Assembly: GCA_001443485.1 (NCBI GenBank)
Contig: LDXQ01000003.1
Location: 20,473 to 84,472 of the forward strand
Origin: Candidatus Sysuimicrobiota bacterium CSP1-3
GTDB lineage: Bacteria; Sysuimicrobiota; Sysuimicrobiia; Sysuimicrobiales; Humicultoraceae
DNA length: 64,000 nucleotides
Reading direction: 5' to 3'
The notes beneath the pieces are model-generated. The model was not told the origin of the DNA, searched no databases, and saw nothing but the letters and a program-made list of their open reading frames with translations. A program made the position numbers and the translations under genes. Position 1 is the first letter of the stretch. Every line of letters begins with the position of its first letter. This document shows, piece by piece, positions 19,270 to 50,881 of the stretch.

Positions 19270-20481
19270 GTGACCGAGCGCCTCTATCTCCGCGATCCCT
19301 ACCTGCGGGAGTTTCAGGCGCGCGTGGTAGCCGCGCGGCGAGCCGAGGGGCGTCCCGGCGTCATCCTGGAGCTTGACCGGACCGCCTTTTACCCCACCTC
19401 CGGGGGCCAACTGCATGACACCGGCGTACTAGGCGACCTGCACGTGCTCGAGGTCGTGGAGGAGGACGACGCGCGGGTCGCGCACCGCGTCGACGGCGCC
19501 GGTCCGGTGGAGGCCCTCGTCGGCCGGGAGGTCAGCGGCCGCATTGACTGGGAGCGCCGCTTCGATCACATGCAGCAGCACACCGGACAGCACATCCTCT
19601 CGCAGGCCGCGCTGCGCGACCTGGGGGCGGCGACGCTGGCCGTGCACCTGGGCGCGGAGCGCTGCACCGTGGACCTCGACGTCGCGGCCTTCGGCGCCGC
19701 CGAAGCGGCGCGGGTGGAAGATGCGGCCAATGCCGTCGTCGTGGAAAACCGCCCGGTCAGCATCCACTTCGTCGATGAGGCGGAGATCGGGCGGTGGGGG
19801 CTGCGCCGGCCGCCGAAGAAGTCGGGCACCATCCGCGTCATCGACATCGAGGGCTTCGACCGCTCGGCCTGCGGCGGGACCCACGTGCGGGCCACCGGCG
19901 AGATCGGGGCGATCGCCATCATCGGGTGGGAGCGGTACAAGGACGGCACCCGCGGGGAATTCGTCTGCGGGTGGCGCGCGCTGCGGGATCACCGCTGGAA
20001 GACCAGGGCGTTCGCCGACATGAGGCGGGCGCTCTCCGTCAGCGGGCCGGAGGTCGTGGAAGTGGTAGACCGCCTGGCGGCGCGAGGGCGGGAGACTGCG
20101 CGCCGGGCGGAGGAGACCCTCCAGCGTCTCCTTGCGGCGGAAGCCGACCTGCGGCGCCGCGGCCTGACGCTGCCGGCCGTCCTCACGGAGGTCGTGACGG
20201 GACGCCAGCGGGATGAGGTACGCGGCCTGGCGCAGGCGCTGATTCGCGATGGCGGCATCGTCTCGCTGCTGGCGACCGACGACGGGCGCATCGTCTTCGC
20301 CCGCTCGGCGGACGTCCCCGTGGACGTCGCGGCGCTGCTGCGGCGGGCCGTGGAACAGTACGGCGGGCGCGGCGGGGGGAGATCCGAGTTCGCCCAGGGA
20401 ACGCTCGCTGACGGGGCGGCGGTGCAGCAGGTGCTCGAGACGGCCCGCCGCTGGGCCGAGGAGGCGCTGCGCGGTGCCTGA
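19270..20481 (+). CDS. alaX: Alanyl-tRNA editing protein (AlaX-L type)
   Basis: GTG start. It has the HTGQHIL and CGGTHV zinc/editing motifs of the AlaRS second additional domain, plus a C-terminal DHHA1-like region (GGRGGGRSEFAQG). Confidence 0.85.
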   Translation: MTERLYLRDPYLREFQARVVAARRAEGRPGVILELDRTAFYPTSGGQLHDTGVLGDLHVLEVVEEDDARVAHRVDGAGPVEALVGREVSGRIDWERRFDHMQQHTGQHILSQAALRDLGAATLAVHLGAERCTVDLDVAAFGAAEAARVEDAANAVVVENRPVSIHFVDEAEIGRWGLRRPPKKSGTIRVIDIEGFDRSACGGTHVRATGEIGAIAIIGWERYKDGTRGEFVCGWRALRDHRWKTRAFADMRRALSVSGPEVVEVVDRLAARGRETARRAEETLQRLLAAEADLRRRGLTLPAVLTEVVTGRQRDEVRGLAQALIRDGGIVSLLATDDGRIVFARSADVPVDVAALLRRAVEQYGGRGGGRSEFAQGTLADGAAVQQVLETARRWAEEALRGA

Positions 20482-21331
20482 GATTCCCTTCGTCGAGACC
20501 CTGGTGGCCAACCTGCGGCCGCGGGTCGTCGGGCGGACGATCCGCGCCGCGCACCTGCGCAGCGTCTCCCTGCTGAAGTCGGTCGACCCGCCGGTCACGG
20601 CCATCCAAGGGGCGACGATCCAGGACGTGCGGCGGCGGGGGAAACTCGCCCTCTTCGACCTCTCCGGCGCGCTGGTCATGATCATCCACCCCAAGCGCGA
20701 CGGGCGGCTGGCGATCGCCCCCTCGACGCAGCGCGCCACAAAGGACGTGGCGCTGATCCTCCAGCTCGACGGCGGTGAGGATCTCCGGCTGATGGAGTTG
20801 GGACCAAAGAAGCGTGCCGGTCTGTACGTCCGGCGGGCGGAGGAGGTTGAGCAGACCGAGCCGGTCGGCGGCCTGGGCGTAGAGCCGCTGGATGCGACGT
20901 TCACCCCGGAAGCCCTCGCCGCGATGCTCGATCAGGCCAGGATGCAGTTGAAGCGCTTCCTGGGGACGCAGCGGTATCTGGCCGGGATCGGCAACGCCTA
21001 CAGCGACGAGATCCTCTGGGAAGCGCGGCTGTCGCCCTTCGCGCCGACGCAGTCCTTGAAGGGAGAAGAGCGGTCGCGTCTCCACGCGGCGATCCGCGAG
21101 GTCCTGCAACGGTCAATCGCCGAGCATCGCGCCCACTTCGGCGACGATCTACCGATGCGCGAACCGGTGGACCTGCTGCGCGTGCACCGGCGGGCGGGCG
21201 AGGCGTGCCCCCGCTGCGGCACCCCCGTCGCCGCCGTCTACTTCAGCGAGAAGGTAACCTACTACTGTCCGGGCTGCCAGACTGGCGGCAAGGTGTATGC
21301 CGATCGCCGGCTGTCGCGTCTGCTGAAGTAG
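20474..21331 (+). CDS. Fpg/Nei family DNA glycosylase (paralog 1)
   Basis: GTG 20474 overlaps the alaX stop. The N-terminus is (M)PEIPFVE. It has the H2TH motif GIGNAYSDEILW and an intact zinc finger CPRCG...CPGCQ. Confidence 0.8.
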   Translation: MPEIPFVETLVANLRPRVVGRTIRAAHLRSVSLLKSVDPPVTAIQGATIQDVRRRGKLALFDLSGALVMIIHPKRDGRLAIAPSTQRATKDVALILQLDGGEDLRLMELGPKKRAGLYVRRAEEVEQTEPVGGLGVEPLDATFTPEALAAMLDQARMQLKRFLGTQRYLAGIGNAYSDEILWEARLSPFAPTQSLKGEERSRLHAAIREVLQRSIAEHRAHFGDDLPMREPVDLLRVHRRAGEACPRCGTPVAAVYFSEKVTYYCPGCQTGGKVYADRRLSRLLK

Positions 21332-21357
21332 GGAACCTCCGAGGGCCGGGAGGAACC

Positions 21358-22161
21358 ATGCCGGAACTGCCTGAGGTCGAGACCGCTCGGCGCACTCTCC
21401 GCCCCGTGATTGGGCGCCGCGTCGCCGGCGTCCTGGTGCTGCGGCCGCAGGCTGTGCGCACGCACTCCGCTCCGGCGCTGGCCCGTGCGCTGCGCGGCAA
21501 GAGGATACGCGGGCTGGAACGGCGGGGGAAGAACCTGCTGATTGCCCTCGACGGGCTCGTCCTGCGCTTCCACTTCAAACTTTGGGGGACCGTCCGGCTG
21601 CATCCCCATCCGCTCGTGGGGGACAAGGAGACCGCCGTCATCGTCTCGTTCACCGACGGCAGCGTCCTGGAGTTCCGCGAGCTGCAGTTAAGCGAGTTGG
21701 GGGTGCACCGCGCCGCGGAAGTGACCCGGATTCTGGCGGTGGCGGAGTTAGGTCCGGATCCGTTTGCGGCGTCATTCACGCGGACTCCCTTCGAACGGCA
21801 ACTCCGGAGGGCGCGGGGCGCCGTGAAGAACGTGCTGACCGATCAGCGCCGGTTCGCCGGCATCGGCAATCTCTGGGCCCATGAGATCCTGCACCGCGCC
21901 CGCATCGCCCCGTCCCGGCCGCTGGATTCGCTGCGCCCGGCGGAGCGGCGGGCCCTCTACAACGCGATGAGGGCGGTGCTGCGCGAGGCGGTGCGCCTGG
22001 GAGGAGAGCCCGAGTTCGTGGACGCGGACGGCCGGCAGGGCAGATTCCCCCTGGCCGTCTACGGGCGCGACGGGCAGCCCTGCCCCCGCGACGGCGCCCC
22101 CGTACGCAAGGGACGCCTGGGTGGCCGGCCGTCGTTCTGGTGCGCCACCTGTCAGCACTGA
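21358..22161 (+). CDS. Fpg/Nei family DNA glycosylase (paralog 2)
   Basis: ATG 21358 gives the canonical MPELPEVE. It has the H2TH motif GIGNLWAHEILH. The zinc finger reads CPRDG...CATCQ, with the second Cys replaced by Asp. Confidence 0.85.
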   Translation: MPELPEVETARRTLRPVIGRRVAGVLVLRPQAVRTHSAPALARALRGKRIRGLERRGKNLLIALDGLVLRFHFKLWGTVRLHPHPLVGDKETAVIVSFTDGSVLEFRELQLSELGVHRAAEVTRILAVAELGPDPFAASFTRTPFERQLRRARGAVKNVLTDQRRFAGIGNLWAHEILHRARIAPSRPLDSLRPAERRALYNAMRAVLREAVRLGGEPEFVDADGRQGRFPLAVYGRDGQPCPRDGAPVRKGRLGGRPSFWCATCQH

Positions 22162-31147: not shown

Positions 31148-31852
31148 ATGCAGCGGATCTTGTGGGGAGGCGTTGTCCTGTTCGTGATGCTGGGTGTTGC
31201 GGGCGCGGTGCTGCCGCCGCTGGTGCCGGCGGCCAGCGCGCAGCCACCGCCGGAGGTGCAGTTCGACATCACGGGCGTGGGGCGGGTGGGTCTGGAACCC
31301 GACTACGGCATCGTCGTCTTCGCCGTGCGGTCGATCAGCCGGACGGCGCAGGGGGCGATCGGCGAGAACGCCCGCGCCATCGACGCCCTGACGAAAGCCC
31401 TGCGCACCTTTACCCGCCCGGGTGACCGGATCGAGACCGCGGGCTTCCAGCTGGGACCGGAGCGCGGGGGGTTCGTCGTGGTGAACCAGGTGCAGGTGCG
31501 CACCACGCAAGTGCAGGAGGTCGGACGGCTCATCGACCTGGCGGTGGGCGCGGGCGCGGACGACATCAGCGCGGTGGCCTTCGGGCGGGAGCACACCAAG
31601 GAGGCCGCGCAGCGCGCCGTCCGCGAGGCGATGCAGCGCGCCCGGGAGAACGCCGAGGCGGTGGCCGCGGGCCTGGGGATGCGGGTGCAGCGCATCACGC
31701 ACATCGAGCCCTCGCTGGAACAGATCGAGGGCCCGCTGGTGGCGCGGGACTATGCGCCGGCGTCCCGGCCGGCGATGGAGCCGACGCAGATCCAGCCCGG
31801 TCGCCTCACGCTGACGGCGCACGTGCGCGTGCGGTTCCTGCTCGGTCCGTAA
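31148..31852 (+). CDS. SIMPL (DUF541) domain protein, secreted
   Basis: It has a signal anchor and SIMPL-like segments (AIGENARAIDALTKAL...QPGRLTLTAHVRVRF). Confidence 0.7.
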   Translation: MQRILWGGVVLFVMLGVAGAVLPPLVPAASAQPPPEVQFDITGVGRVGLEPDYGIVVFAVRSISRTAQGAIGENARAIDALTKALRTFTRPGDRIETAGFQLGPERGGFVVVNQVQVRTTQVQEVGRLIDLAVGAGADDISAVAFGREHTKEAAQRAVREAMQRARENAEAVAAGLGMRVQRITHIEPSLEQIEGPLVARDYAPASRPAMEPTQIQPGRLTLTAHVRVRFLLGP

Positions 31853-41116: not shown

Positions 41117-41524
41117 GTGGAGTTCGTCCTCGGACAGCGCGCCACCGTCAGCAAGACCATCACCGCGGCGGACGTCGACACTTTCGCCGGACTGAGCGGG
41201 GACTTCAACCCGCTGCACGTCGACGCCGCGTTCGCGGCCCGCACCCGCTTCGGCGAACGGATCGCCCACGGGATGCTCACCGCCGGCCTGATCTCCGCAG
41301 TCCTGGGGATGCAGCTGCCCGGACCGGGCGGGATCTACCTCAGCCAGACGCTGCGCTTCCTGAAACCGGTGCGCATCGGGGAGGCGATTACCGCGGCGGC
41401 CGAGGTGACGGCGTACGACCCGCAGCGCCGCCGGCTGACCCTGCATACGACGTGCACGAACCAGCGGGGGGAGATGGTGCTCGACGGGGAGGCGGTGCTG
41501 CTGGTAGAACCGCCGGGCGGCTAG
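41117..41524 (+). CDS. MaoC-like (R)-specific enoyl-CoA hydratase / dehydratase
   Basis: GTG start. The hotdog hydratase motif is SGDFNPLHVD...IAHGML. Confidence 0.85.
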   Translation: MEFVLGQRATVSKTITAADVDTFAGLSGDFNPLHVDAAFAARTRFGERIAHGMLTAGLISAVLGMQLPGPGGIYLSQTLRFLKPVRIGEAITAAAEVTAYDPQRRRLTLHTTCTNQRGEMVLDGEAVLLVEPPGG

Positions 41525-41949
41525 GCCGGGGCGCCGCGGCAGTCCGCGCAGAGGCCGCGGAAGACGACGGCCTGCTCTTTGACGACGAACCCGCCGCGCT
41601 GCGCCGCGGGGATCTCTACCGGGGTCATCTCGACGAAGACGTCCTTCACTTTCCCGCAGCGCTCGCAGACCAGGTGATGGTGGTCGTTGATGTTGGTGCA
41701 GAAGCGCATGCTGCCCGTGCCCAGGTCGAGCGGCCGGACCGCCCGCACCTCTTCCAGTTCCGCCAGGACGGCGTAGACGGTGCGCAGCGACATGGACGGT
41801 ATCTCGCGCACGGCCCGCACGTAGAGTGCCTCCGCGGTGGGGTGGTCGGCCTGGGTCTCCTCCAAGAGGCGGAAGATCAGGTCCCGCTGCGGCGTGATGC
41901 GCCGGCCGGCCGCCTGGAAGCGCTCCCGCAAGTCACCGCTGGTGATCAT
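41521..41949 (-). CDS. Fur family transcriptional regulator
   Basis: ITPQRDLIFRLL, HHHLVCERCGKV and a C-terminal CADC give the Fur/PerR/Zur architecture. Confidence 0.9.
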   Translation of the reverse strand: MITSGDLRERFQAAGRRITPQRDLIFRLLEETQADHPTAEALYVRAVREIPSMSLRTVYAVLAELEEVRAVRPLDLGTGSMRFCTNINDHHHLVCERCGKVKDVFVEMTPVEIPAAQRGGFVVKEQAVVFRGLCADCRGAPA

Positions 41950-41959
41950 ACAGACGGGT

Positions 41960-42025
41960 TACACCTAACAACGATTGTTTCGCAATTCTATTGTTCGGTA
42001 GTCAAGAATTAGGATAGCCTAACCC
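41960..42025. promoter_or_regulatory. AT-rich divergent control region with three short palindromes (candidate Fur-family operators)
   Basis: AACAA-CGA-TTGTT (41967-41979), CAAT-TCT-ATTG (41983-41993) and TTAGG-ATAG-CCTAA (42009-42022). ATTGTT is repeated 16 nt apart. The region lies between fur and the FTR1 permease gene. Confidence 0.45.
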
Positions 42026-42100
42026 AGGAGCGGAAATCCAGTACCGGGCCGCCCCGGCGTCTGCCGGTCGGCCAACCCTGACGGGCCCGAGAGGAGTCAC

Positions 42101-42943
42101 ATGACCGAGATGGGACCCTCGCTGCTGATCACCCTGCGCGAAGGCCTCGAGGCGGCGCTCATCGTCGGCATCATCCTGGCCTATCTCGCCCGGACCGGCA
42201 ACCGCGACAAGTCGGGTGCTGTCTGGTTCGGCGCAGCAGTCAGCGTCCTGCTGAGCCTGCTGGTCGGCGCGGGGATCTTCCTCACCGCGGGCGGCATCGA
42301 GGGGCGGGCGGAGGAAATCTTTGAAGGCAGTGCGATGTTCGCCGCCGCCGGCGTCCTGACATACATGATCTTCTGGATGCGCCGCCAGGCCATCAACATC
42401 CGCGCGCACCTGCAGGCGCAGGTGCAGACAGCGCTGGAGACCGGATCGGTCTGGGCACTAGGCCTGCTGGCCTTCGTGGCGGTGGGGCGCGAGGGCGTGG
42501 AGACGGCGCTCTTCATGTTTGCCACGACGAAGACGGCGACGCCGCTGGCGGCGACAGTCGGCGGACTGTTGGGCCTGGGCGCGGCGATCATCCTCGGCTA
42601 CCTGCTCTACCGCGGGACCTACCGGCTGAACCTGCGCGCCTTCTTCAACGTGACCAGCGTCCTGCTGCTGCTCTTTGCCGCGGGGTTGCTGGCGCACGGC
42701 ATCCACGAATTCCACGAAGCCGGCGTAATCCCGCCTATCGTCGAGTCGCTGTGGGACACCAACGCGATCGTGGATGAGGCTTCCACGCTCGGCGGTTTCC
42801 TCAAGGCGCTCTGGGGGTACAATGGTAACCCCTCGCTCGTCGAAGTCCTCGCCTACACGGGATACCTCCTGCTGGTGGGGTGGATGTACTTCCGCCCGCC
42901 CACGGCGAAAGAACTGCGTCCCACCACGGAGCGCGCGCGCTGA
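42101..42943 (+). CDS. FTR1/EfeU family high-affinity iron permease
   Basis: It has two REXXE iron-binding motifs (REGLEAAL and REGVETAL) and seven hydrophobic segments. Confidence 0.9.
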   Translation: MTEMGPSLLITLREGLEAALIVGIILAYLARTGNRDKSGAVWFGAAVSVLLSLLVGAGIFLTAGGIEGRAEEIFEGSAMFAAAGVLTYMIFWMRRQAINIRAHLQAQVQTALETGSVWALGLLAFVAVGREGVETALFMFATTKTATPLAATVGGLLGLGAAIILGYLLYRGTYRLNLRAFFNVTSVLLLLFAAGLLAHGIHEFHEAGVIPPIVESLWDTNAIVDEASTLGGFLKALWGYNGNPSLVEVLAYTGYLLLVGWMYFRPPTAKELRPTTERAR

Positions 42944-42987: not shown

Positions 42988-43701
42988 ATGATGCGGGAGG
43001 CCCTCCTGCTCGTGCTGGAGGGGTTGACCCCCTTCGCCGACGCCTGGGCGCTACAGCGGCGGCTGGTCGCCGCCCGCCAGCAAGGCATCATCTCCGACGT
43101 GGTCATCCTCCTGGAACATCAGCCTGTCCTCACCATCGGGCGGTCGGGCGGCCCCGGTCATCTGCTCGTGCCCCGCGACCTGCTGGCGGAGCGCGGCGTC
43201 GAGGTCCACGACATCGAGCGCGGCGGCGGCGCCACCTACCACGGACCGGGGCAGCTGGTGGCTTACCCCATCCTCGACCTCCGCGCCCTCGATGAGGATG
43301 TCGTGCGCTTCATGCGGGCGCTGGAGGAGTCGATCATCCGCACCGTCGCCGACTTTGGGATCACGGGGTCGCGGCGGCGCGGCTTCCCCGGGGTCTGGGT
43401 GGGAGAGGCGAAAATCGCCGCGGTGGGCGTGGCGGTGAAGCGACGCGTGACGATGCACGGCATGGCCCTCAACGTCACCACCGACCTGGAGCCCTTCACC
43501 TGGATCAATCCCTGCGGCCTGGGCCGCCCCGTCACGTCCATGGCGCAGACGCTGGGGCGGGAGGTCGCGCGGGCGGAGGTGGCGGACGCCTACGCGCGGC
43601 GCTTCGTCGAGGTGTACTCCCTGCACCTGACGCCGGTGGCGCGCGAGGACGTGGAGCAGCGGCTCACCGCACTCGCCGTAAGTGGAGCGGTGGTGTCCTG
43701 A
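42988..43701 (+). CDS. lipB: Octanoyltransferase (lipoyl(octanoyl) transferase)
   Basis: LEHQPVLTIGR, RGGGATYHGPGQLV, AAVGVAV and HGMALNV are LipB signatures. Confidence 0.9.
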   Translation: MMREALLLVLEGLTPFADAWALQRRLVAARQQGIISDVVILLEHQPVLTIGRSGGPGHLLVPRDLLAERGVEVHDIERGGGATYHGPGQLVAYPILDLRALDEDVVRFMRALEESIIRTVADFGITGSRRRGFPGVWVGEAKIAAVGVAVKRRVTMHGMALNVTTDLEPFTWINPCGLGRPVTSMAQTLGREVARAEVADAYARRFVEVYSLHLTPVAREDVEQRLTALAVSGAVVS

Positions 43702-44843
43702 TGCCGTCACGCCGCCGCTTCGAGACCCGGGCGATCCACGACGGCCAGGAGCCCGATCCGACGACGGGGGCGGTGATCACCCCGATCTACCAGACCTCCA
43801 CCTACGTGCAGCAGGCGCCGGGCGAGCACCGCGGCTACGACTACTCGCGCACCGCCAATCCGACGCGCACCGCGCTGGAACGGGCGCTGGCCTCACTGGA
43901 AGAGGCGGAGTACGGACTGGCCTTCGCCTCGGGCATGGCCGCCATCACGACCGCCGCGCTGCTGCTCTCCCCCGGCGACCACGTCGTCGCACCCGATGAC
44001 GTCTACGGGGGGACCTACCGCCTCTTCGTCCGCGTGCTGCAGCGCTACGGCATCGACACGACGTTCGTGGACATGACCGAGGTGGCCGCCGTGGAACGCG
44101 CGCGGCGGGAGCGCACGCGCCTGATCTTCATCGAGACGCCGACCAACCCGTACCTGAAGATCCTGGACATCGCCCGCCTCTCCGAGCTGGCGCACGCCCA
44201 CGGCGCGTTGGTGGCGGTCGACAACACCTTCGCCACGCCCTACGTGCAGCAGCCGCTGCGGTTTGGAGCGGATCTAGTGATTCACTCCACGACCAAGTAC
44301 CTCGGCGGTCACAGCGACGTCGTCGGCGGGGCGGTGGCCACCTCGCGCGCCGACCTGTACGAGTCGCTGAAGTTCCATCAGAATGCCGTCGGTGGGGTCC
44401 CCGGTCCCTTCGACTGCTGGCTGGTCCTGCGCGGGCTGCGCACGCTGGCCGTGCGCATGGATCGCCACGCCGAAAACGCCGCCCGGGTGGCGCGGGCGCT
44501 GGTCGAGCACCCGCGGGTGACCCGCGTGTTCTACCCCGGGCTCACCGACCATCCGGGGCGCGACCTGGCGGCGCGGCAGATGCGCAATTCCGGGGGCATG
44601 GTGTCGTTTGTCGTGAACGGGGGCGGCGCCGCGGCGCGACGCGTGGCTTCGCGGACAAGGCTCTTCCTGCTGGCGGAGAGCCTGGGTGGAGTGGAGTCGC
44701 TGATCGACCACCCCGCATCGATGACGCACGCCAGCCTGGTCGGATCACCGCTGGCCGTGGACGAGGGCCTGCTGCGCCTCTCGGTGGGCATAGAGCATGC
44801 AGACGATCTGATCGAGGATCTGCGGCAAGCCCTGGAAACCTGA
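43701..44843 (+). CDS. Cystathionine gamma-synthase/gamma-lyase family PLP enzyme
   Basis: YSRTANPT and the PLP lysine in STTKYLGGHSD place it in the Cys/Met-metabolism PLP family. The start overlaps the lipB stop by 1 nt. Confidence 0.9.
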   Translation: MPSRRRFETRAIHDGQEPDPTTGAVITPIYQTSTYVQQAPGEHRGYDYSRTANPTRTALERALASLEEAEYGLAFASGMAAITTAALLLSPGDHVVAPDDVYGGTYRLFVRVLQRYGIDTTFVDMTEVAAVERARRERTRLIFIETPTNPYLKILDIARLSELAHAHGALVAVDNTFATPYVQQPLRFGADLVIHSTTKYLGGHSDVVGGAVATSRADLYESLKFHQNAVGGVPGPFDCWLVLRGLRTLAVRMDRHAENAARVARALVEHPRVTRVFYPGLTDHPGRDLAARQMRNSGGMVSFVVNGGGAAARRVASRTRLFLLAESLGGVESLIDHPASMTHASLVGSPLAVDEGLLRLSVGIEHADDLIEDLRQALET

Positions 44844-44849
44844 AGTGAG

Positions 44850-45158
44850 GTGAGGGTAGTGGCAACGGTCTACGTCCCCGCTCCCCTCCGGCGCCAGACC
44901 GGGGGGCAGAGCCGCGTGCAGGTGCCGGGGACCACGGTGCGCGAGGTCCTGGCGAATCTCGGGACGGTCTATCCGGGGGTGGGCGCGCAGGTGCAAGACG
45001 AGGCCGGGCACGTCCGCGCCTACATCAACATCTTCGTCAACGGCAACGAGATGCGCACGCTGCGCGGCGAGGATACTCCGGTGGGGCCGCAGGACGAGGT
45101 CTCGATTATCCCGGCGATGGCCGGCGGGCTGGTCGCGTTGGGGACGGCCGGACGATGA
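44850..45158 (+). CDS. MoaD/ThiS/CysO-like sulfur-carrier protein with C-terminal extension after the GG motif
   Basis: 102 aa of beta-grasp type (YINIFVNGNE...DEVSIIPAMAGG) followed by LVALGTAGR. The stop overlaps the next start (ATGA). Confidence 0.8.
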   Translation: MRVVATVYVPAPLRRQTGGQSRVQVPGTTVREVLANLGTVYPGVGAQVQDEAGHVRAYINIFVNGNEMRTLRGEDTPVGPQDEVSIIPAMAGGLVALGTAGR

Positions 45159-46552
45159 GGGTGGAGACGCGCGCCGGCGAGCGCATCCACGGCAGCATCC
45201 TGGACGTCGTCGGCCACACGCCGCTGGTCCGCCTGCACAAGGTGGCGCGCGGCGTGCGCGCCGACGTGGTGGCCAAACTGGAGTTCATGAACCCCGGCGG
45301 CTCGGTGAAGGACCGGATCGGCGTGCGCATGATCGCCGACGTGGAGGCGCAGGGGAAGCTTCGACCCGGCGGGACGATCGTTGAAGCCACCTCGGGCAAC
45401 ACCGGCATGGGACTGGCCATCGTCGCCGCTGTGAGGGGCTATCGCTGCATCTTCGTCATGCCGGACAAGATGTCGGAGGAGAAGATCCGGCTGCTGCGGG
45501 CTTTCGGCGCAAGAGTCGTGATCACCCCGACGGCGGTGGCCCCGGAGGACCCGCGCTCCTACTACAGCGTCAGTCGGCGGCTGGCCGAGGAGACGCCCAA
45601 CGCCTGGTACGCCGACCAGTACCACAACCCGGACAACCCCGCCGCCCACTACGAAACCACCGGACCGGAGATCTGGGAAGACACCGCCGGCCGGATTGAC
45701 GTCTTCGTCTGCGGCATGGGGACGGGCGGGACCATCTCCGGCGTGGGCCGCTATCTGAAGGAGCGCAATCCCAACCTCAAGGTCGTCGGTGTGGACCCCA
45801 TCGGCTCCGTTTACACCGAGTATTTCCGCAGCGGCAAGATGATCGCGCCGCGCACCTATAAGGTGGAGGGGATCGGCGAGGACTTCCTCCCGGGGACGAT
45901 GGACTTCAGCGTGGTGGACGAGGTGGTGGCGGTCAATGACCGGGAGTCCTTCCTGGTGACCCGCCGCCTGGTGCGGGAGGAGGGGATCTTCTGCGGCGGC
46001 AGCAGCGGCACCGCGGTGGCCGGGGCGCTGCGCTACCTGCGCAGCCTGGCCAACCACGGCGAGGGGAAGCGGGCCGTGATCATCCTCCCCGACTCCGGGT
46101 TTCGGTATCTCTCCAAGGTCTTCTCCGACGACTGGATGCGGGAGAACGGCTTCCTGGAGGCCGAGATGGGCACGGTGGCCGATCTGCTGCGGGCCAAGGG
46201 TCTGCCGCTGATCACGGCCACACCGGACGAACCGGTGCGGGCGGTGATCGCCAAGATGAAGCAGTACGACGTCTCGCAGCTACCGGTCGTCGGCGACGGC
46301 GGCCTGGTCGGGATGGTCAGCGAGGTCGACCTGTTGTCCTACCTGCTGGAAGGCGGCCACGGCCTCGACGACCCGATCACGCCGATCGTCGATCCCGCGC
46401 CGCCCGTGGTCACCCCGGACACCCCCGTGGACAACCTCGCCGACGCCTTCCTCAACGCTAACGCGGCCATCGTCGTGGACGGCGGCCGTCTTGTCGGCAT
46501 CGTCACCAAGATCGACGTGATCGACCACCTCGCCCGGATCCTCGGTCGGTAG
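45155..46552 (+). CDS. Cystathionine beta-synthase-like PLP enzyme (cysteine synthase fold plus CBS-domain pair)
   Basis: NPGGSVKDR, SGNTGMGLA and GTGGTISG, plus a C-terminal tandem CBS pair (DVSQLPVV...IVTKIDVIDHL). Confidence 0.9.
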   Translation: MRVETRAGERIHGSILDVVGHTPLVRLHKVARGVRADVVAKLEFMNPGGSVKDRIGVRMIADVEAQGKLRPGGTIVEATSGNTGMGLAIVAAVRGYRCIFVMPDKMSEEKIRLLRAFGARVVITPTAVAPEDPRSYYSVSRRLAEETPNAWYADQYHNPDNPAAHYETTGPEIWEDTAGRIDVFVCGMGTGGTISGVGRYLKERNPNLKVVGVDPIGSVYTEYFRSGKMIAPRTYKVEGIGEDFLPGTMDFSVVDEVVAVNDRESFLVTRRLVREEGIFCGGSSGTAVAGALRYLRSLANHGEGKRAVIILPDSGFRYLSKVFSDDWMRENGFLEAEMGTVADLLRAKGLPLITATPDEPVRAVIAKMKQYDVSQLPVVGDGGLVGMVSEVDLLSYLLEGGHGLDDPITPIVDPAPPVVTPDTPVDNLADAFLNANAAIVVDGGRLVGIVTKIDVIDHLARILGR

Positions 46553-47391
46553 TGACCCGCCCCGCGCGTCTCCCCTCCGATCAGCCGCTCCCTACCCTGC
46601 GCATCGTGGCGGCAGAGGAGGTCCACCTGCACGAGGACGCCGACCCGCGGCGCGTGGCCGGCCTCGTCGAGCAACTGGCGACCGAAGGCGTGCTGCGCAA
46701 CCCGCCGCTGGCGGCGGCGCTGCCGGGGGGCGGCTACGTCATCCTCGACGGCGCGAACCGCACCAGCGCGCTGCGGCAGCTGGACCTACCGTATCACCTG
46801 CTGCAGATCGTGGAGTACGCGGCGCCGGAGGTGCGGTTGGAGGTCTGGCATCACCTCCTGCGGGAGGACGGGCACGCGCTGACGCGGTTCCTGCCGGAGA
46901 ACGCGCTGATCGACATCCCCAGCGCGGACCGGCTGCGCAAAGACCTGCAGGATGGGCGGCTGGCCTGCGGCTTGATCACGGAGAACGGCGTCCAGGGCGT
47001 TGGCTCCGAGCGGCCGTTCCCGGCGCGCGTCGCCGCGCTGCGCGCGGTCGTCGGCGCGTACAACGGGCGCGTGCCTATCTACCGGGTCCTGACCACGGAC
47101 CTCGCAGTGCTGCGGGCGGAATACGACCGCATCGGCGTGCTGGTGGTCTTCCCGCGCTTCTCTAAGGAAGAGATCCGGCACTTGGCCGCCCTGCCGGAGA
47201 AGCTGCCCACCGGGATCACCCGCCACGTCATCCCGAATCGGGCCCTCCGGGTGAACCTTCCGCTGGATGTCCTGCGCGGCCGGGGGTCGCGAGAGGAGAA
47301 GAATGCCGTCCTCCACGACCTGATCCACGCGCGACTGCTCGCCCACCGGGTGCGCGTCTACCCGGAACCCACCGTCCTGTTTGACGACTAA
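46552..47391 (+). CDS. ParB/Srx-fold protein resembling SbnI/SerK free-serine kinases
   Basis: GTG 46552 overlaps the CBS stop by 1 nt. It has VHLHEDADPRR...LRNPPL...YVILDGANRTSAL (a ParB/Srx DGxxR-type core) and the C-terminal LPTGITRHVIPNRALRVNLPLDVL. The family assignment rests on motif memory, not on a search. Confidence 0.6.
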   Translation: MTRPARLPSDQPLPTLRIVAAEEVHLHEDADPRRVAGLVEQLATEGVLRNPPLAAALPGGGYVILDGANRTSALRQLDLPYHLLQIVEYAAPEVRLEVWHHLLREDGHALTRFLPENALIDIPSADRLRKDLQDGRLACGLITENGVQGVGSERPFPARVAALRAVVGAYNGRVPIYRVLTTDLAVLRAEYDRIGVLVVFPRFSKEEIRHLAALPEKLPTGITRHVIPNRALRVNLPLDVLRGRGSREEKNAVLHDLIHARLLAHRVRVYPEPTVLFDD

Positions 47392-47392
47392 G

Positions 47393-48289
47393 GTGTCCAG
47401 CGGTCTCCTGGACCGGATCGGCAGTACCCCGCTGCTGCGGGTGAAGCGTCTGCGCGGGATTCCGCCGCGCGTGGAGATCCTGGCGAAGGCGGAGTGGTTC
47501 AATCCGGGGGGATCGGTGAAGGACCGGCCCGTCCTCCGCATGATCGAGGACGCGGAGCGTGAAGGCCGGCTCACAGCGGACAAGATCGTGCTCGATTCAT
47601 CCTCGGGGAATGCCGGCATCGCCTATGCGATGCTCGGCGCGGCGAAAGGCTACCGCGTCGAACTGGTCATCCCGGAGAACGTCAGCGCGGAGCGGAAGCG
47701 GATCATCCGCGCGTTCGGCGCGACGGTCATCTCCTCGGACCCGTTGGAGGGGTCCGACGGCGCCATCCGCCTGGCCCACGAGCGCTTCGCCGCGGCCCCG
47801 GACCGCTATTGTATGCCCGACCAGTACAACAACCCGAGCAACTGGCGCGCCCACTACGACACGACCGGACCGGAGATCATCGCCCAGAGTGAGGGGCGCA
47901 TCACGCACTTCGTCGCCGGATTGGGCACGTCCGGCACGCTCGTCGGCGTCGGCCGGCGCCTGCGCGAATGGAACCCCGACGTGCAGATCGTCGCGGTGGA
48001 GCCCGACGGGCCGCTGCACGGGCTGGAGGGGCTGAAGCACATGGCCACCTCCATCGTGCCGGGGATCTACGATCCGTCGGTGCACCATCGCGTCATCGGC
48101 GTGCAGACCGAGCCCGCCTACGCGATGACCCGCCGCCTGACGCAGGAAGAGGGGTGGTTGGTCGGGCCCTCCGCCGGGGCGGCGATGCTGGCGGCGGTGC
48201 AGGTGGCGCAGGAGGAAGGAGCCGGCGTGATCGTCGTCGTCCTGCCGGACGGCGGCGACCGCTACCTCTCCACAGAGGTGTTCGGATAG
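47393..48289 (+). CDS. cysM: CysM-like cysteine synthase (O-phosphoserine / carrier-thiocarboxylate type suspected)
   Basis: GSTPLL, NPGGSVKDRP, SSGNAGIAYA and ITHFVAGLGTSGTLVGVGRRLRE closely parallel mycobacterial CysM as I recall it. The start is GTG 47393 or TTG 47381. Confidence 0.85.
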   Translation: MSSGLLDRIGSTPLLRVKRLRGIPPRVEILAKAEWFNPGGSVKDRPVLRMIEDAEREGRLTADKIVLDSSSGNAGIAYAMLGAAKGYRVELVIPENVSAERKRIIRAFGATVISSDPLEGSDGAIRLAHERFAAAPDRYCMPDQYNNPSNWRAHYDTTGPEIIAQSEGRITHFVAGLGTSGTLVGVGRRLREWNPDVQIVAVEPDGPLHGLEGLKHMATSIVPGIYDPSVHHRVIGVQTEPAYAMTRRLTQEEGWLVGPSAGAAMLAAVQVAQEEGAGVIVVVLPDGGDRYLSTEVFG

Positions 48290-48313: not shown

Positions 48314-48715
48314 ATGGCGCTGCGGCTCTCGTCCGATCACCTGCAGGACGTGGTCGCCCACGCCCGGGAGACCTTTCCCCACGAGTGCTGCGGGCTGCTC
48401 GCCGGGCGCGACGGGCGGGTGGTCCGCGTGTGCCGCGGGCGCAACGTGGATGAGAGCCCGTACACCTACCGCCTGGACGACCGGCAGTTGCTGCAGTTCT
48501 TGCGGGAGATGGATCAGGACGGGCTGGACATTGTCGGCATCTACCACTCGCACACCGCGTCGGAGGCGACGCCTTCGCGCACGGACGTGGCCAGGGCATT
48601 CTATCCGGAGGCGGTGTATGTGATAATATCCCTACAGCATCCGGAGCATCCGGTGGTCCGCGGGTTCCGCATCGTCGATGGGACCGTCGCCGAAGAGGAC
48701 GTGATCGTCCAGTGA
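48314..48715 (+). CDS. JAMM/MPN+ (M67) metalloprotease, Mec+-like
   Basis: It has the conserved Glu (PHECCG) and the JAMM motif HSHTASEATPSRTD (HxHx7Sx2D). Confidence 0.9.
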   Translation: MALRLSSDHLQDVVAHARETFPHECCGLLAGRDGRVVRVCRGRNVDESPYTYRLDDRQLLQFLREMDQDGLDIVGIYHSHTASEATPSRTDVARAFYPEAVYVIISLQHPEHPVVRGFRIVDGTVAEEDVIVQ

Positions 48716-49173
48716 AGGTCAGCACCCGGCCCGAGCACGCGACCCGCGCGGTGAAGGTGAGTAGCCGCGCGGAGTACGGCATGCGTGCGCTTGTGGATCT
48801 GGCCCTCCACTACGGCGAGGGCTACGTGCAGAGCCACGACATCGCGGCCCGGCAGGGGCTCCCCGAATCCTACCTCAACCAGATCATGACCACGCTCCGC
48901 CGCGCGGGACTGGTCTCGAGCAAGCGCGGGCCAGCCGGCGGGCACACGCTCTCGCGTTCGCCCGACGCGATCACCCTGCGGGAAGCCTTCGAAGTGCTCG
49001 AAGAGGGCGCCTCCCCGTGGTGGTGCGTGGAAGTGGAAGATCCTGACTGCGCATACGCCCCCGGCTGTGGCGTCCGGCCCATCTGGATGGCCATGAAGAC
49101 CGCGGCCGAGGGCGTCCTGGACCGCCTCACCCTGCTGGACATTGCCAGCACCCGCACCCCTGTTAAGAAGTAA
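48712..49173 (+). CDS. Rrf2 family transcriptional regulator (three-Cys, Fe-S type)
   Basis: GTG 48712 overlaps the JAMM stop (GTGA). A second Rrf2-like start is at 48751 (VKVSSRAEYGMRAL). It has a wHTH and the Cys cluster CVEVEDPDCAYAPGC. Confidence 0.85.
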   Translation: MKVSTRPEHATRAVKVSSRAEYGMRALVDLALHYGEGYVQSHDIAARQGLPESYLNQIMTTLRRAGLVSSKRGPAGGHTLSRSPDAITLREAFEVLEEGASPWWCVEVEDPDCAYAPGCGVRPIWMAMKTAAEGVLDRLTLLDIASTRTPVKK

Positions 49174-49345
49174 CCCCCCGGCTGTTCGGCAGGACATCGG
49201 CCCCCCGTGGTCGAAGCCTCCAGGTACGGGGCAGGGCACCCCGGACACGCAGGTCTGGCCCGACCATCGAAGGGCGGGGGCGAGGGCCCCATCTGGGCGC
49301 GATTGTCAGGGATGCCCTGTCCTTCGCTTTCCGCGCGCCGCCGCC

Positions 49346-49371
49346 GAAATTTCCCCCCGCGCCTCCTCGTT
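49346..49371 (+). promoter_or_regulatory. SigR/SigH-type (ECF) promoter-like element upstream of the sigma gene
   Basis: GAAAT (49346-49350), an 18-nt spacer, then GTT (49369-49371). The remembered consensus is GGAAT-N18-GTT. Confidence 0.4.
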
Positions 49372-49380
49372 GAGACGATA

Positions 49381-50022
49381 GTGGAGGCGGCGGCACTGGA
49401 GTCCCGATCCTTGGCGTTGAATCAGCCCTCCGGAGATGCCTCGGCCGGCCAGGAGTTCGCGGCGCTGGTCGAGTCAAATCTGGACGGCCTCTACGGCGCG
49501 GCGCTGCGTCTGACCCGCACCCGCGACAGGGCGGAGGATCTGGTCCAGGAGACCTTCCTCAAGGCCTGGCGCTCCTTCCATTCCTTCCAACCGGGGACCA
49601 ACGCGCGGGCCTGGCTTTACCGCATCATGATGAACGCCTACATCGACTCCTACCGGAAGGCCGATCGGGAACCGGAAATCGTCGATCAAGAGGACGTGGA
49701 GGAGCAGTACCTGTACAGCCGGGTACAGGAGAGCGAGGAACTGCGTCGGCAGGGTAACCCGGAGGAGATCACGCTCCAGGCCGTCATGGACGCGGACGTA
49801 GAAGAGGCCCTGGCCTCGCTGCCCGAGTCCTTCCGCGCCGCCGTCATCCTGGCCGACCTCGAGGGCTTCGCGTACAAGGAGATCGCGCAGATCCTCGGCG
49901 TCCCCATCGGCACGGTGATGTCCCGGCTCTTCCGCGGTCGGCGCCTGCTGCAGAAGGCGCTGTGGGAGTATGCCCTGAAGACCCGCCGCATCACGCCGGA
50001 CCAGGAAGGAAGCGCCCGATGA
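49381..50022 (+). CDS. ECF-type RNA polymerase sigma factor (SigR/SigH-like)
   Basis: Region 2 is [19 protein letters not shown]...[15 protein letters not shown]. Region 4 is [29 protein letters not shown]. The start is uncertain (49381, 49411 or 49417 within ORF 49207..50022). Confidence 0.85.
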
Positions 50023-50252
50023 GCACGGTCCACTGCGAAGAGGTCGTCCGCCTGCTCTGGCGGTACATGGACCGGGAACTGGATCCGGACACCTACCGGC
50101 GGCTGCAGGAACACGTCCGGCAGTGCCGCAACTGCGGGCCGCGCCACGAGTTTGAGGCCCGGCTGCGGTCGATCATCCAGGAGAAGTGCGCGGGCCAGCC
50201 CGCGCCCGAAGCCCTGCGCCGTCGCGTCATGGCCCTGCTGCAAGAGCTCTAG
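50019..50252 (+). CDS. Zinc-binding anti-sigma factor (ZAS, RsrA/RshA-like)
   Basis: ATG 50019 overlaps the sigma stop (ATGA). HCEEV...HVRQCRNC gives the H-x3-C-x2-C ZAS motif. The protein is 77 aa and soluble. Confidence 0.8.
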
Positions 50253-50362
50253 GGTCCGACTCGCCCGCCGCTCGTCCACCCGCCCGTCCGCACCGCGCCG
50301 CAGCGCGTATAATCCAACCCGTGAGGTGGTTTCTTCGTCCGAAGCAACGCCAGGAGGCGCAC

Positions 50363-50752
50363 ATGTCGAGAGAGATCATCAGCACTGACGCTGCGCCCCG
50401 CGCCATTGGACCGTACTCGCAGGCGATGCGGGCGGGTGGATTCCTGTTTCTCTCCGGGCAGATCGCCCTGGATCCCCGCACAGAGCAGCTGGTGGGCGGC
50501 GATATCAAACAGCAGACGCGGCGGGTGCTGGAGAACGTGAAGGCCCTACTGCAAGCGGCGGGCTCCTCGCTCAACCGCGTGGTGAAGTGCACGGTTTTCC
50601 TGGCCGACATGAATGACTTCGGCGCGATGAACGAAGAGTACGGCTCCTTCTTCCAAGAGGAGCCGCCGGCGCGGACTACGGTAGCGGCTAGCCGGCTGCC
50701 TCGCGGTGCGCTCGTGGAGATTGATGTGATCGCGGTGGTAGGGGAGGGGTAA
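50363..50752 (+). CDS. ridA: RidA (YjgF/TdcF) family reactive-intermediate deaminase
   Basis: ATG 50363 follows AGGAGG. It has APRAIGPYSQA, FLSGQIALDP and ARTTVAASRLPRGALVEID. Confidence 0.9.
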   Translation: MSREIISTDAAPRAIGPYSQAMRAGGFLFLSGQIALDPRTEQLVGGDIKQQTRRVLENVKALLQAAGSSLNRVVKCTVFLADMNDFGAMNEEYGSFFQEEPPARTTVAASRLPRGALVEIDVIAVVGEG

Positions 50753-50806: not shown

Positions 50807-50881
50807 TGGGGGGTCGTCTAGTCGGGAGGACACCGGACTTTGACTCCGGCAACGCAGGATCGAAGCCTGCCCCCCCAGCCA
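50807..50881 (+). tRNA. tRNA-Gln (anticodon UUG), CCA encoded
   Basis: Manual fold: acceptor TGGGGGG/CCCCCCA with a U1:A72 pair, discriminator G73 and CCA. D arm is GTCT-AGTCGGGA-GGAC. Anticodon arm is CCGGA-CTTTGAC-TCCGG. T arm is GCAGG-ATCGAAG-CCTGC, and the A at position 54 is unusual. Confidence 0.85.

Follow-up and report, generated by a model that had tools for sequence, protein, structure and literature searches.

The 64,000-nucleotide stretch of the Candidatus Sysuimicrobiota bacterium CSP1-3 genome analyzed here (contig LDXQ01000003.1, positions 20,473 to 84,472 of the forward strand; hereafter the window) contains, amid genes for cysteine synthesis, an open reading frame (ORF) whose product is a remote yet clear two-domain homolog of the known free L-serine kinases SbnI and SerK. 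We consider it probable that this protein is itself a free L-serine kinase of the SerK/SbnI type, which feeds O-phosphoserine to a cysteine route based on a sulfur-carrier protein. The support for this reading consists of observed homology, fold, catalytic residues, synteny and gene fusions; the substrate, the phosphate donor (ATP, ADP or another nucleoside triphosphate) and the use of O-phosphoserine by the neighboring cysteine synthase CysM are predicted.

46552-47391, plus strand: predicted free L-serine kinase, SerK/SbnI-like, two domains, 279 residues (ORF and translation, NCBIfam, PDB profile, AlphaFold2, Foldseek)

So far, to our knowledge, free-serine kinases have been described only from a small number of hyperthermophilic archaea and from a single siderophore pathway in staphylococci. 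SbnI (Staphylococcus aureus and S. pseudintermedius; PDB 5UJE, 5UJD, 6NR6) is an ATP-dependent free L-serine kinase that supplies O-phosphoserine to SbnA for staphyloferrin B. SerK (Thermococcus kodakarensis TK0378; PDB 5X0B), with its ortholog PF0380 (PDB 1VK1), is an ADP-dependent free serine kinase acting in cysteine synthesis and serine assimilation.

Homology to SbnI and SerK in sequence and fold

The kinase gene is a 279-residue ORF, as originally predicted, and its GTG start has one base in common with the TAG stop of the upstream gene for cystathionine beta-synthase (CBS) (...GGTCGGTAGTGACC...). All peptides quoted in that prediction were located in the translation: VHLHED at residues 24-29, LRNPPL at 48-53, YVILDGANRTSAL at 62-74, FPRFSKEEIRHLAALPEKLPTGITRHVIPNRALRVNLPLDVL at 200-241 and RVRVYPEPTVLF at 266-277. 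In a window of 69% GC, the GC content of the ORF is 0.91 at the third codon position (GC3) and 0.43 at the second (GC2), typical of a real gene, and the 277-residue minus-strand ORF that overlaps it (46786-47619; GC3 0.78, GC1 0.79) looks like a shadow ORF. The family has 1173 matches at E<=1e-3 in a protein collection clustered at 90% identity, the best of them 95% identical, and 1037 among the representatives of 50%-identity clusters, 147 of which fall below 1e-30; a relative is encoded in 519 stretches of GTDB species genomes. The ORF is real, coding and conserved far beyond chance. Its nearest named relatives belong to Candidatus Sysuimicrobiota (CSP1-3), a phylum that older records label Armatimonadota, and some homologs carry database names such as "ParB N-terminal domain-containing protein" or "Spo0J". 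A Pfam scan of the ORF returned no family at E<=0.01.

Profile searches place the protein with the serine kinases. The NCBIfam model for SbnI (NF033589) matches residues 15-272 at 1.1e-16 and that for SerK (NF053625) residues 22-240 at 4.3e-8, nearly the whole model being spanned in both cases. With phmmer against the PDB sequences, SbnI (2.4e-11), SerK (1.1e-8) and PF0380 were the only significant matches, and a profile built from 40 family members found SbnI at 1.3e-25, PF0380 at 1e-12 and SerK at 1.7e-11, the best canonical ParB reaching 0.087. The likeness of the C-terminal half to SbnI, which the original prediction had proposed, was found in the alignment, including the segment PAGVTRFNI.GRCLNLQVPL.

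An AlphaFold2 model built on the 40-member family alignment (mean predicted local distance difference test score 92, predicted template modeling score 0.88) has the two-domain architecture of these enzymes, with an N-terminal ParB/sulfiredoxin (Srx) fold and a SerK-type C-terminal alpha/beta domain. In a Foldseek search of the PDB the top nine matches are all SerK, SbnI or PF0380 (including 5x0b, 6nr6, 5uje and 1vk1), at E 8e-18 to 1e-16 over 235-270 aligned columns (TMq 0.63-0.72, TMt 0.76-0.82). The best is SerK 5x0b (E 7.7e-18, root-mean-square deviation 2.8 A, 235 columns), and the SbnI structures match at E ~1e-17 (TM 0.70-0.82). The next matches, Atu1540, Noc, ParB, Srx and PadC, cover ~80 N-terminal residues (E >= 7e-4, TMq ~0.24). 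These results confirm the predicted ParB/Srx-like core of the N-terminal half, and place SerK, SbnI and PF0380, rather than ParB nucleases or DNA binders, at the top across both domains. The C-terminus has ~35 extra residues, a helix plus RxRxYPEPTxLFDE, which are absent from SerK; in part, they can be aligned with the tail of SbnI, R268-x-Y270-x-E272 lining up with MRCYTE.

Residues implicated in catalysis were compared in the family alignment and in a joint alignment that added SerK, PF0380 and the SbnI of two species to the family. Three motifs stand out:

46630-46635, plus strand: codons of H27-E28, the predicted catalytic base (SbnI H19-E20, SerK H29-E30), invariant in 40 family members and in the joint alignment
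46747-46770, plus strand: codons of D66-G-A-N-R70-T-S-A73, a ParB-type GxxRxxA nucleotide/phosphate box after the Asp equivalent to SbnI Asp58 (family and joint alignments)
47212-47226, plus strand: codons of G221-I-T-R224-H225, a C-terminal domain motif common to SbnI (GVTRF) and SerK (TTRH) (profile and joint alignments)

In the joint alignment no variation is seen at H27, E28, P51, D66, G67, R70 and W99, and R224 is nearly invariant. Within the 40-member family, D66, G67, A68, N69 and R70 are invariant, A73 nearly so, and G221, R224 and H225 are invariant; the D, G and R of D66-G67-A-N-R70 are kept in SbnI and SerK as well. Counted from the alignments, E28 is equivalent to Glu20 of SbnI and Glu30 of SerK, and D66 to Asp58 of SbnI, so that the expected acidic residues are present, invariant in the family and aligned with those of the known kinases. 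Glu30 of SerK reportedly serves as catalytic base, and PDB entry titles record SerK E30A and E30Q mutants crystallized with phosphoserine. SbnI kinase activity is reported to require Glu20 and Asp58 (PMC9641203, citing Verstraete 2018). The DGxxR position had been thought to differ from both the ParB and the Srx boxes. For ParB this does not stand, G67-A-N-R70-T-S-A73 fitting GxxRxxA exactly; for Srx it does, as LDGANR lacks the Cys of FGGCHR. The motif is also without the arginine-rich GERRxR of CTP-binding ParBs.

The cysteine gene cluster and its conservation

The kinase gene lies inside a tightly packed cluster of genes on the same strand, with junctions that overlap or nearly abut, in the order cystathionine gamma-synthase/lyase (CGS/CGL), CysO, CBS, kinase, CysM, JAB, Rrf2. 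The other genes, several of which encode pyridoxal phosphate (PLP) enzymes, are as follows, with LipB upstream:

42988-43701, plus strand: LipB octanoyltransferase (Pfam LplA-B_cat 1.7e-49), upstream in 37 of 80 loci
43701-44843, plus strand: Cys/Met-metabolism PLP enzyme, CGS/CGL of the Mycobacterium tuberculosis MetB type (PRK07811 567 bits, above the cut-off of 513)
44850-45158, plus strand: ThiS/MoaD-fold sulfur-carrier protein, CysO-like (Pfam ThiS 6.6e-13; NCBIfam SAMP1 2.6e-15)
45155-46552, plus strand: CBS, with PALP and CBS domains (TIGR01137 542.9 bits, above the cut-off of 510; Pfam PALP, CBS)
47381-48289, plus strand: CysM-type cysteine synthase, predicted O-phosphoserine consumer (TIGR01138 cysM 2.9e-105, below the equivalog cut-off)
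48314-48715, plus strand: JAB/JAMM metalloprotease, Mec+/desampylase-like (Pfam Prok-JAB 8.8e-27; NCBIfam desampylase 2e-26)
48712-49173, plus strand: Rrf2-family regulator, CymR-like (Pfam Rrf2 5.7e-34; NCBIfam CymR 4.3e-24, below the cut-off)

A ThiS-fold Gly-Gly carrier, a CysM-type PLP enzyme and a JAB/JAMM hydrolase are thereby encoded together in the window. Two of the ORF starts, 47381 (CysM) and 44850 (CysO), are probably set too far upstream. For CysM, homolog alignments start at residues 4-6, which makes the GTG at 47393, two bases past the kinase stop codon, the probable true start; for CysO it is probably the GTG at 44859, because homolog N-termini read MATV.... The lipB stop overlaps the CGS start (GTCCTGATGCCG); a functional link is not obvious, and LipB is probably not functionally part of the cysteine pathway. 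A promoter and terminator scan of 41.5-51.2 kb gave counts not above shuffled expectation and no signal within the cluster, and Rfam found no riboswitch and a single tRNA across the whole window.

Directly past Rrf2, at 49207-50752 and 50807-50881, follow an extracytoplasmic function (ECF) sigma factor, a zf-HC2 (RsrA-like) anti-sigma factor, RidA and a tRNA-Gln. The sigma/anti-sigma/RidA order is seen again in loci L006 and L009, and a LipB-kinase-JAB-Rrf2-sigma arrangement in L006-L009 and L036. A putative thiol-redox sigma switch adjoining a cysteine operon recalls the control of actinobacterial cysO-cysM by SigH/SigR.

Gene context was counted in 80 genome loci by tblastn with the window proteins. 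The gene order of the window is common to 48 of them, 47 of which are complete downstream; CysM lies directly 3' of the kinase gene in 42 of these 47, with JAB and Rrf2 coming next. JAB is present in 49 and Rrf2 in 43 of the 80 loci. The argument from position, that a kinase set amid cysteine genes supplies O-phosphoserine, is thus borne out by an order of SerK-like protein, CysM, JAB and Rrf2 kept in dozens of genomes, and by gene fusions. CysO-kinase-CysM-JAB-Rrf2 is retained in loci without CGS and CBS (e.g., L011, L013, L014, L016, L023 and L026), and the carrier-protein branch therefore constitutes the stable partners of the kinase. In two loci (L012, 7850-11090, and L015, 8339-11247), ~3.3 kb separate CysM and JAB and hold a two-domain rhodanese and three other genes. 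The rhodanese has a CRIGERS active-site loop and would fit a role in mobilizing sulfur; the insert further encodes a 170-180-residue protein and a 323-residue protein with paired E..H / EDEARH motifs, di-iron-like in appearance, and in L015 also a cupin-like protein.

The CysO gene has an unusual 3' end. In the window a 9-residue tail, LVALGTAGR, comes after the Gly-Gly, which ends at 45128. Among the 37 loci (L001-L071) in which the Gly-Gly could be located, a stop codon directly after it occurs in none (0/37); a tail of 1-25 residues follows in 25 and in-frame CBS in 12. Ubiquitin precursors and proteins made as ubiquitin fusions have a similar layout. The arrangement implies that the adjoining JAB protease must process the carrier, and the CysO fusions presumably represent a general precursor design matured by that enzyme.

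Fusions also involve the kinase itself. A ThiS/CysO domain ending in AMAGG is fused to it in three family members (P0047, P0061, P0067) and a JAB domain in one (P0147). In four proteins of 560-600 residues (P0184, P0187, P0232, P0244) an N-terminal SerA-like D-2-hydroxyacid dehydrogenase precedes the SerK-like domain, a fusion that is also present in further family members (P0243, P0250, P0190), fragments included. Regardless of the cysteine context, the SerA-like fusions connect the family with serine/phosphoserine chemistry, and they suggest a module leading from serine via O-phosphoserine to 3-phosphoglycerate. They parallel the gene clustering in Desulfurococcales, where serK, serA and an aminotransferase gene are neighbors; SerK has a supporting role in serine assimilation (PMC5120207).

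Proposed pathway and alternative explanations

In the proposed mechanism, the N-terminal ParB/Srx-fold domain would bind the nucleotide and the C-terminal alpha/beta domain would close over the substrate. E28 would act as the base and take the proton from the serine hydroxyl, with D66, G67 and R70 of the GxxRxxA box and T223-R224-H225 positioning nucleotide, phosphate and substrate. The product, O-phospho-L-serine, would be handed to CysM, encoded directly downstream, which would form aminoacrylate from it, open to attack by the CysO thiocarboxylate. JAB would first trim the CysO precursor past Gly-Gly and later free cysteine, and CBS and CGL would provide a parallel cysteine route from homocysteine. 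In the sequence from serine via O-phosphoserine to cysteine, a first step known from archaeal SerK would thereby lead into CysO/CysM/Mec+ chemistry of the mycobacterial kind. A serine kinase would make biochemical sense where serine comes via the reductive glycine pathway and not from phosphoserine; that pathway has been proposed to provide serine from glycine in such lineages (PMC11604079).

The CysM sequences are compatible with O-phosphoserine as substrate. The window CysM is 42% identical to that of M. tuberculosis, with K219 at the position of Arg220 in the latter. Among 44 CysM sequences the PLP lysine is kept in all, as is a K or R at the Arg220 position. In the O-phosphoserine-using CysK of T. 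kodakarensis, a Lys likewise stands where the Aeropyrum pernix enzyme has Arg (PMC5120207).

A number of observations weigh against a serine kinase dedicated to this route. The protein scores 60.9 bits against an equivalog cut-off of 350 for NF033589 and 32.6 against 380 for NF053625, and sameness of function with SbnI or SerK is therefore not guaranteed; because these curated cut-offs are not reached, it is to be placed, on its sequence, in a separate uncurated clade, as an ortholog of neither. Its identity to the characterized kinases is 19-22% (SbnI 21-22%, SerK 19-20%). Arg220 of M. tuberculosis CysM was tried as a marker for O-phosphoserine use; E. coli CysM also has a basic residue there (R210), so the position is not diagnostic and gives no discrimination from O-acetylserine. 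The CysO-kinase fusions had been taken as "Rosetta stone" evidence and are downgraded here: CysO is fused to whichever gene comes next (CBS in 12 loci), which makes these fusions weak evidence of a specific partnership. Five loci (L006-L009 and L036) have LipB-kinase-JAB-Rrf2 and neither CysO nor CysM within the 8-13 kb covered, so that in this subclade the kinase-JAB pairing is steadier than that of kinase and CysM. Finally, homologs in Chloroflexota, at 37-44% identity, are mostly isolated or beside CBS only, and conserved partners sought in seven Chloroflexota neighborhoods were not found.

These observations leave room for roles other than cysteine synthesis. The enzyme might phosphorylate serine for carbon or serine metabolism, leading via O-phosphoserine and 3-phosphohydroxypyruvate to 3-phosphoglycerate, or work in reverse as a substitute for SerB. 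The many family members fused to SerA-like dehydrogenases would suit such a role, as would the Desulfurococcales clusters and the part of SerK in serine assimilation (PMC5120207), the DUF1015 "SerBK" proteins, which have an SbnI-like structure and are a proposed SerB replacement (GapMind 2026 preprint), and the Chloroflexota homologs without linkage to cysteine genes. However, in the window, as in 42 of 47 loci, the gene is wedged amid cysteine-synthesis genes, with a CymR-like regulator, and neither serA nor serC adjoins it. A main role in carbon or serine metabolism is unlikely; the cysteine and serine roles are not exclusive. The same fold could also serve another hydroxy amino acid, such as threonine or L-homoserine, in the latter case yielding O-phosphohomoserine for the CGS-type neighbor. 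Identity of ~20% to SerK and SbnI, far under the equivalog cut-offs, leaves scope for this, as do the family-invariant residues D31, R34, R49, N69, H101 and K205, and likewise R230, R233, R268, Y270 and E272, none with a counterpart in SerK/SbnI, and the presence of a CGS-family Cys/Met PLP enzyme in the cluster. Yet loci without CGS and CBS retain the kinase beside CysO and CysM, making the serine-derived branch the conserved partner; a CGS with a bona fide CBS at its side is in keeping with reverse transsulfuration, for which homoserine need not be activated; and the SerA-like fusions indicate serine/phosphoserine chemistry. A different substrate is, on balance, quite improbable.

The remaining explanations would remove the kinase reaction on a free amino acid from the center of the function. 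SbnI has been assigned two functions, transcriptional regulation and kinase activity (name of NCBIfam NF033589; PMC9641203), and the R268-x-Y270-x-E272 segment is common to SbnI and the present protein and absent from archaeal SerK, so that mainly a regulator of the operon, DNA-binding or ligand-sensing and with or without kinase activity, might be envisaged. This is very unlikely in view of catalytic residues strictly conserved in more than 40 diverse sequences and of an operon already equipped with an Rrf2-family regulator, behind which an ECF sigma/anti-sigma pair is encoded; neither a helix-turn-helix (HTH) nor another DNA-binding domain was detected by Pfam or Foldseek, in agreement with the original prediction. 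Slightly less credible again is an Srx-like reaction, in which the protein would phosphorylate the Gly-Gly carboxylate of CysO to an acyl phosphate for attack by sulfide. No ThiF/MoeZ-type E1 was found in the operon or among the 38 scanned window genes, five loci keep kinase-JAB-Rrf2 without adjacent CysM, and CysO-kinase and JAB-kinase fusions exist, all of which would fit; if true, this would be an E1-independent synthesis of protein thiocarboxylates. The full-length SerK-like fold, conserved catalytic residues that suit a hydroxyl substrate, the SerA-like fusions and the stand-alone Chloroflexota homologs speak against it. The E1 of M. tuberculosis (MoeZ) is encoded away from its CysO pathway genes. 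A ParB-type nuclease or a partition or defense protein that stands in the operon by chance is the least probable of all. The N-terminal ParB/Srx fold with its GxxRxxA box, the database names of homologs and a report of the structural relative PF0380 as a nuclease (PMC5120207) could point that way, but the matches to ParB, Noc and Srx span ~80 residues (E ~1e-3) whereas those to the serine kinases are full-length at 1e-17, there is no HTH, ParA or parS context, and synteny with cysteine genes is kept across phylum-level distances. Identities as ParB nuclease, partition protein or sulfiredoxin were ruled out by fold coverage and motifs, the first two being effectively refuted by synteny as well, in line with the earlier doubt about a partition or nuclease role.

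Relation to known systems and other features of the window

Among characterized proteins, SbnI is the best sequence match to the free L-serine kinase that we propose. The match extends over both domains and into the C-terminal tail, with equivalents of Glu20 and Asp58 kept, and both genes adjoin one for a CysK/CysM-fold PLP enzyme, here a predicted O-phosphoserine user. The context differs: primary cysteine synthesis with a sulfur-carrier protein in Ca. Sysuimicrobiota (CSP1-3) and Chloroflexota, as opposed to a siderophore cluster in Staphylococcus; haem or DNA binding is not indicated. With SerK it has in common the two-domain fold, the Glu30 equivalent, the DGxxR and T-R-H motifs and the proposed logic of serine to O-phosphoserine to cysteine (PMC5120207). 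In contrast to archaeal SerK, the protein is bacterial and has the ~35 additional C-terminal residues, and the predicted sulfur donor is a protein thiocarboxylate and not the free sulfide of the SerK route. In T. kodakarensis, serK lies outside any operon, and Makino et al. (2016) did not find clear-cut bacterial SerK homologs (PMC5120207).

With the M. tuberculosis CysO-CysM-Mec+ system (Rv1335, Rv1336 and Rv1334), the cluster shares a Gly-Gly ThiS-fold carrier, a CysM and a JAB protease. CBS (Rv1077) and the PRK07811-type CGS/CGL (MetB, Rv1079) have counterparts in the window operon, and a redox-type ECF sigma/zf-HC2 anti-sigma pair adjoins it. The operon matches the mycobacterial system, with the addition of a kinase and of a carrier always made as a precursor. 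The mycobacterial source of O-phosphoserine is the SerA/SerC pathway, and we know of no serine kinase in the mycobacterial system. Differences lie in CysO, which in window-type clusters never ends at Gly-Gly and is tailed or fused to the next enzyme, and in the window CysM, which lacks the C-terminal extension of the M. tuberculosis enzyme and has Lys in place of Arg220.

ParB/Noc CTPase clamps and Srx resemble the kinase in the fold of the N-terminal ~80 residues and in the GxxRxxA box. Unlike ParB and Noc, the kinase has no HTH, dimerization domain, ParA-binding motif or GERRxR, and has a SerK-type second domain. Srx is a single-domain protein of ~100 residues with a catalytic Cys, whereas the kinase has 279 residues in two domains and no Cys in the motif.

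The predicted kinase thus joins the SerK/SbnI superfamily in a new pathway combination and is not a categorically new system. In the searchable literature we found no serine kinase or ParB-fold protein linked to CysO, to JAMM or to cysteine synthesis by way of a sulfur carrier. The family is not discussed in two genomics papers on CSP1-3, and a 2025 survey of ParB-fold proteins mentions SerK, SbnI and Srx, while term searches of it gave no mention of JAB, dehydrogenase or ubiquitin. If correct, the assignment would provide a function for proteins now called "hypothetical" or "ParB N-terminal domain", which form ~1000 clusters at 50% identity and occur mainly in Ca. Sysuimicrobiota (CSP1-3, formerly labeled Armatimonadota) and Chloroflexota. 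It would bring free-serine kinases into bacterial primary metabolism, and into the core metabolism of an uncultured phylum, by way of a hybrid cysteine route in which a serine kinase supplies an O-phosphoserine-dependent CysM working with a ubiquitin-like thiocarboxylate carrier. It would also aid pathway-prediction tools, which now score such genomes as having neither cysE nor a source of O-phosphoserine.

Elsewhere in the window, the region immediately before the cluster (41521-42943) encodes an FTR1 iron permease and, on the minus strand, a Fur-family regulator, and is preceded by a branched-chain amino-acid ATP-binding cassette transporter at ~36.5-41.1 kb. A 97-nucleotide tRNA-Thr called by ARAGORN at 31185-31281, within a SIMPL/DUF541 ORF, is probably a false positive, since Rfam at the gathering threshold did not report it. 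Two neighboring ORFs at 20249-22161, which overlap in part, both carry Fpg/Nei (formamidopyrimidine-DNA glycosylase) domains and are either tandem paralogs or the result of mis-set starts.

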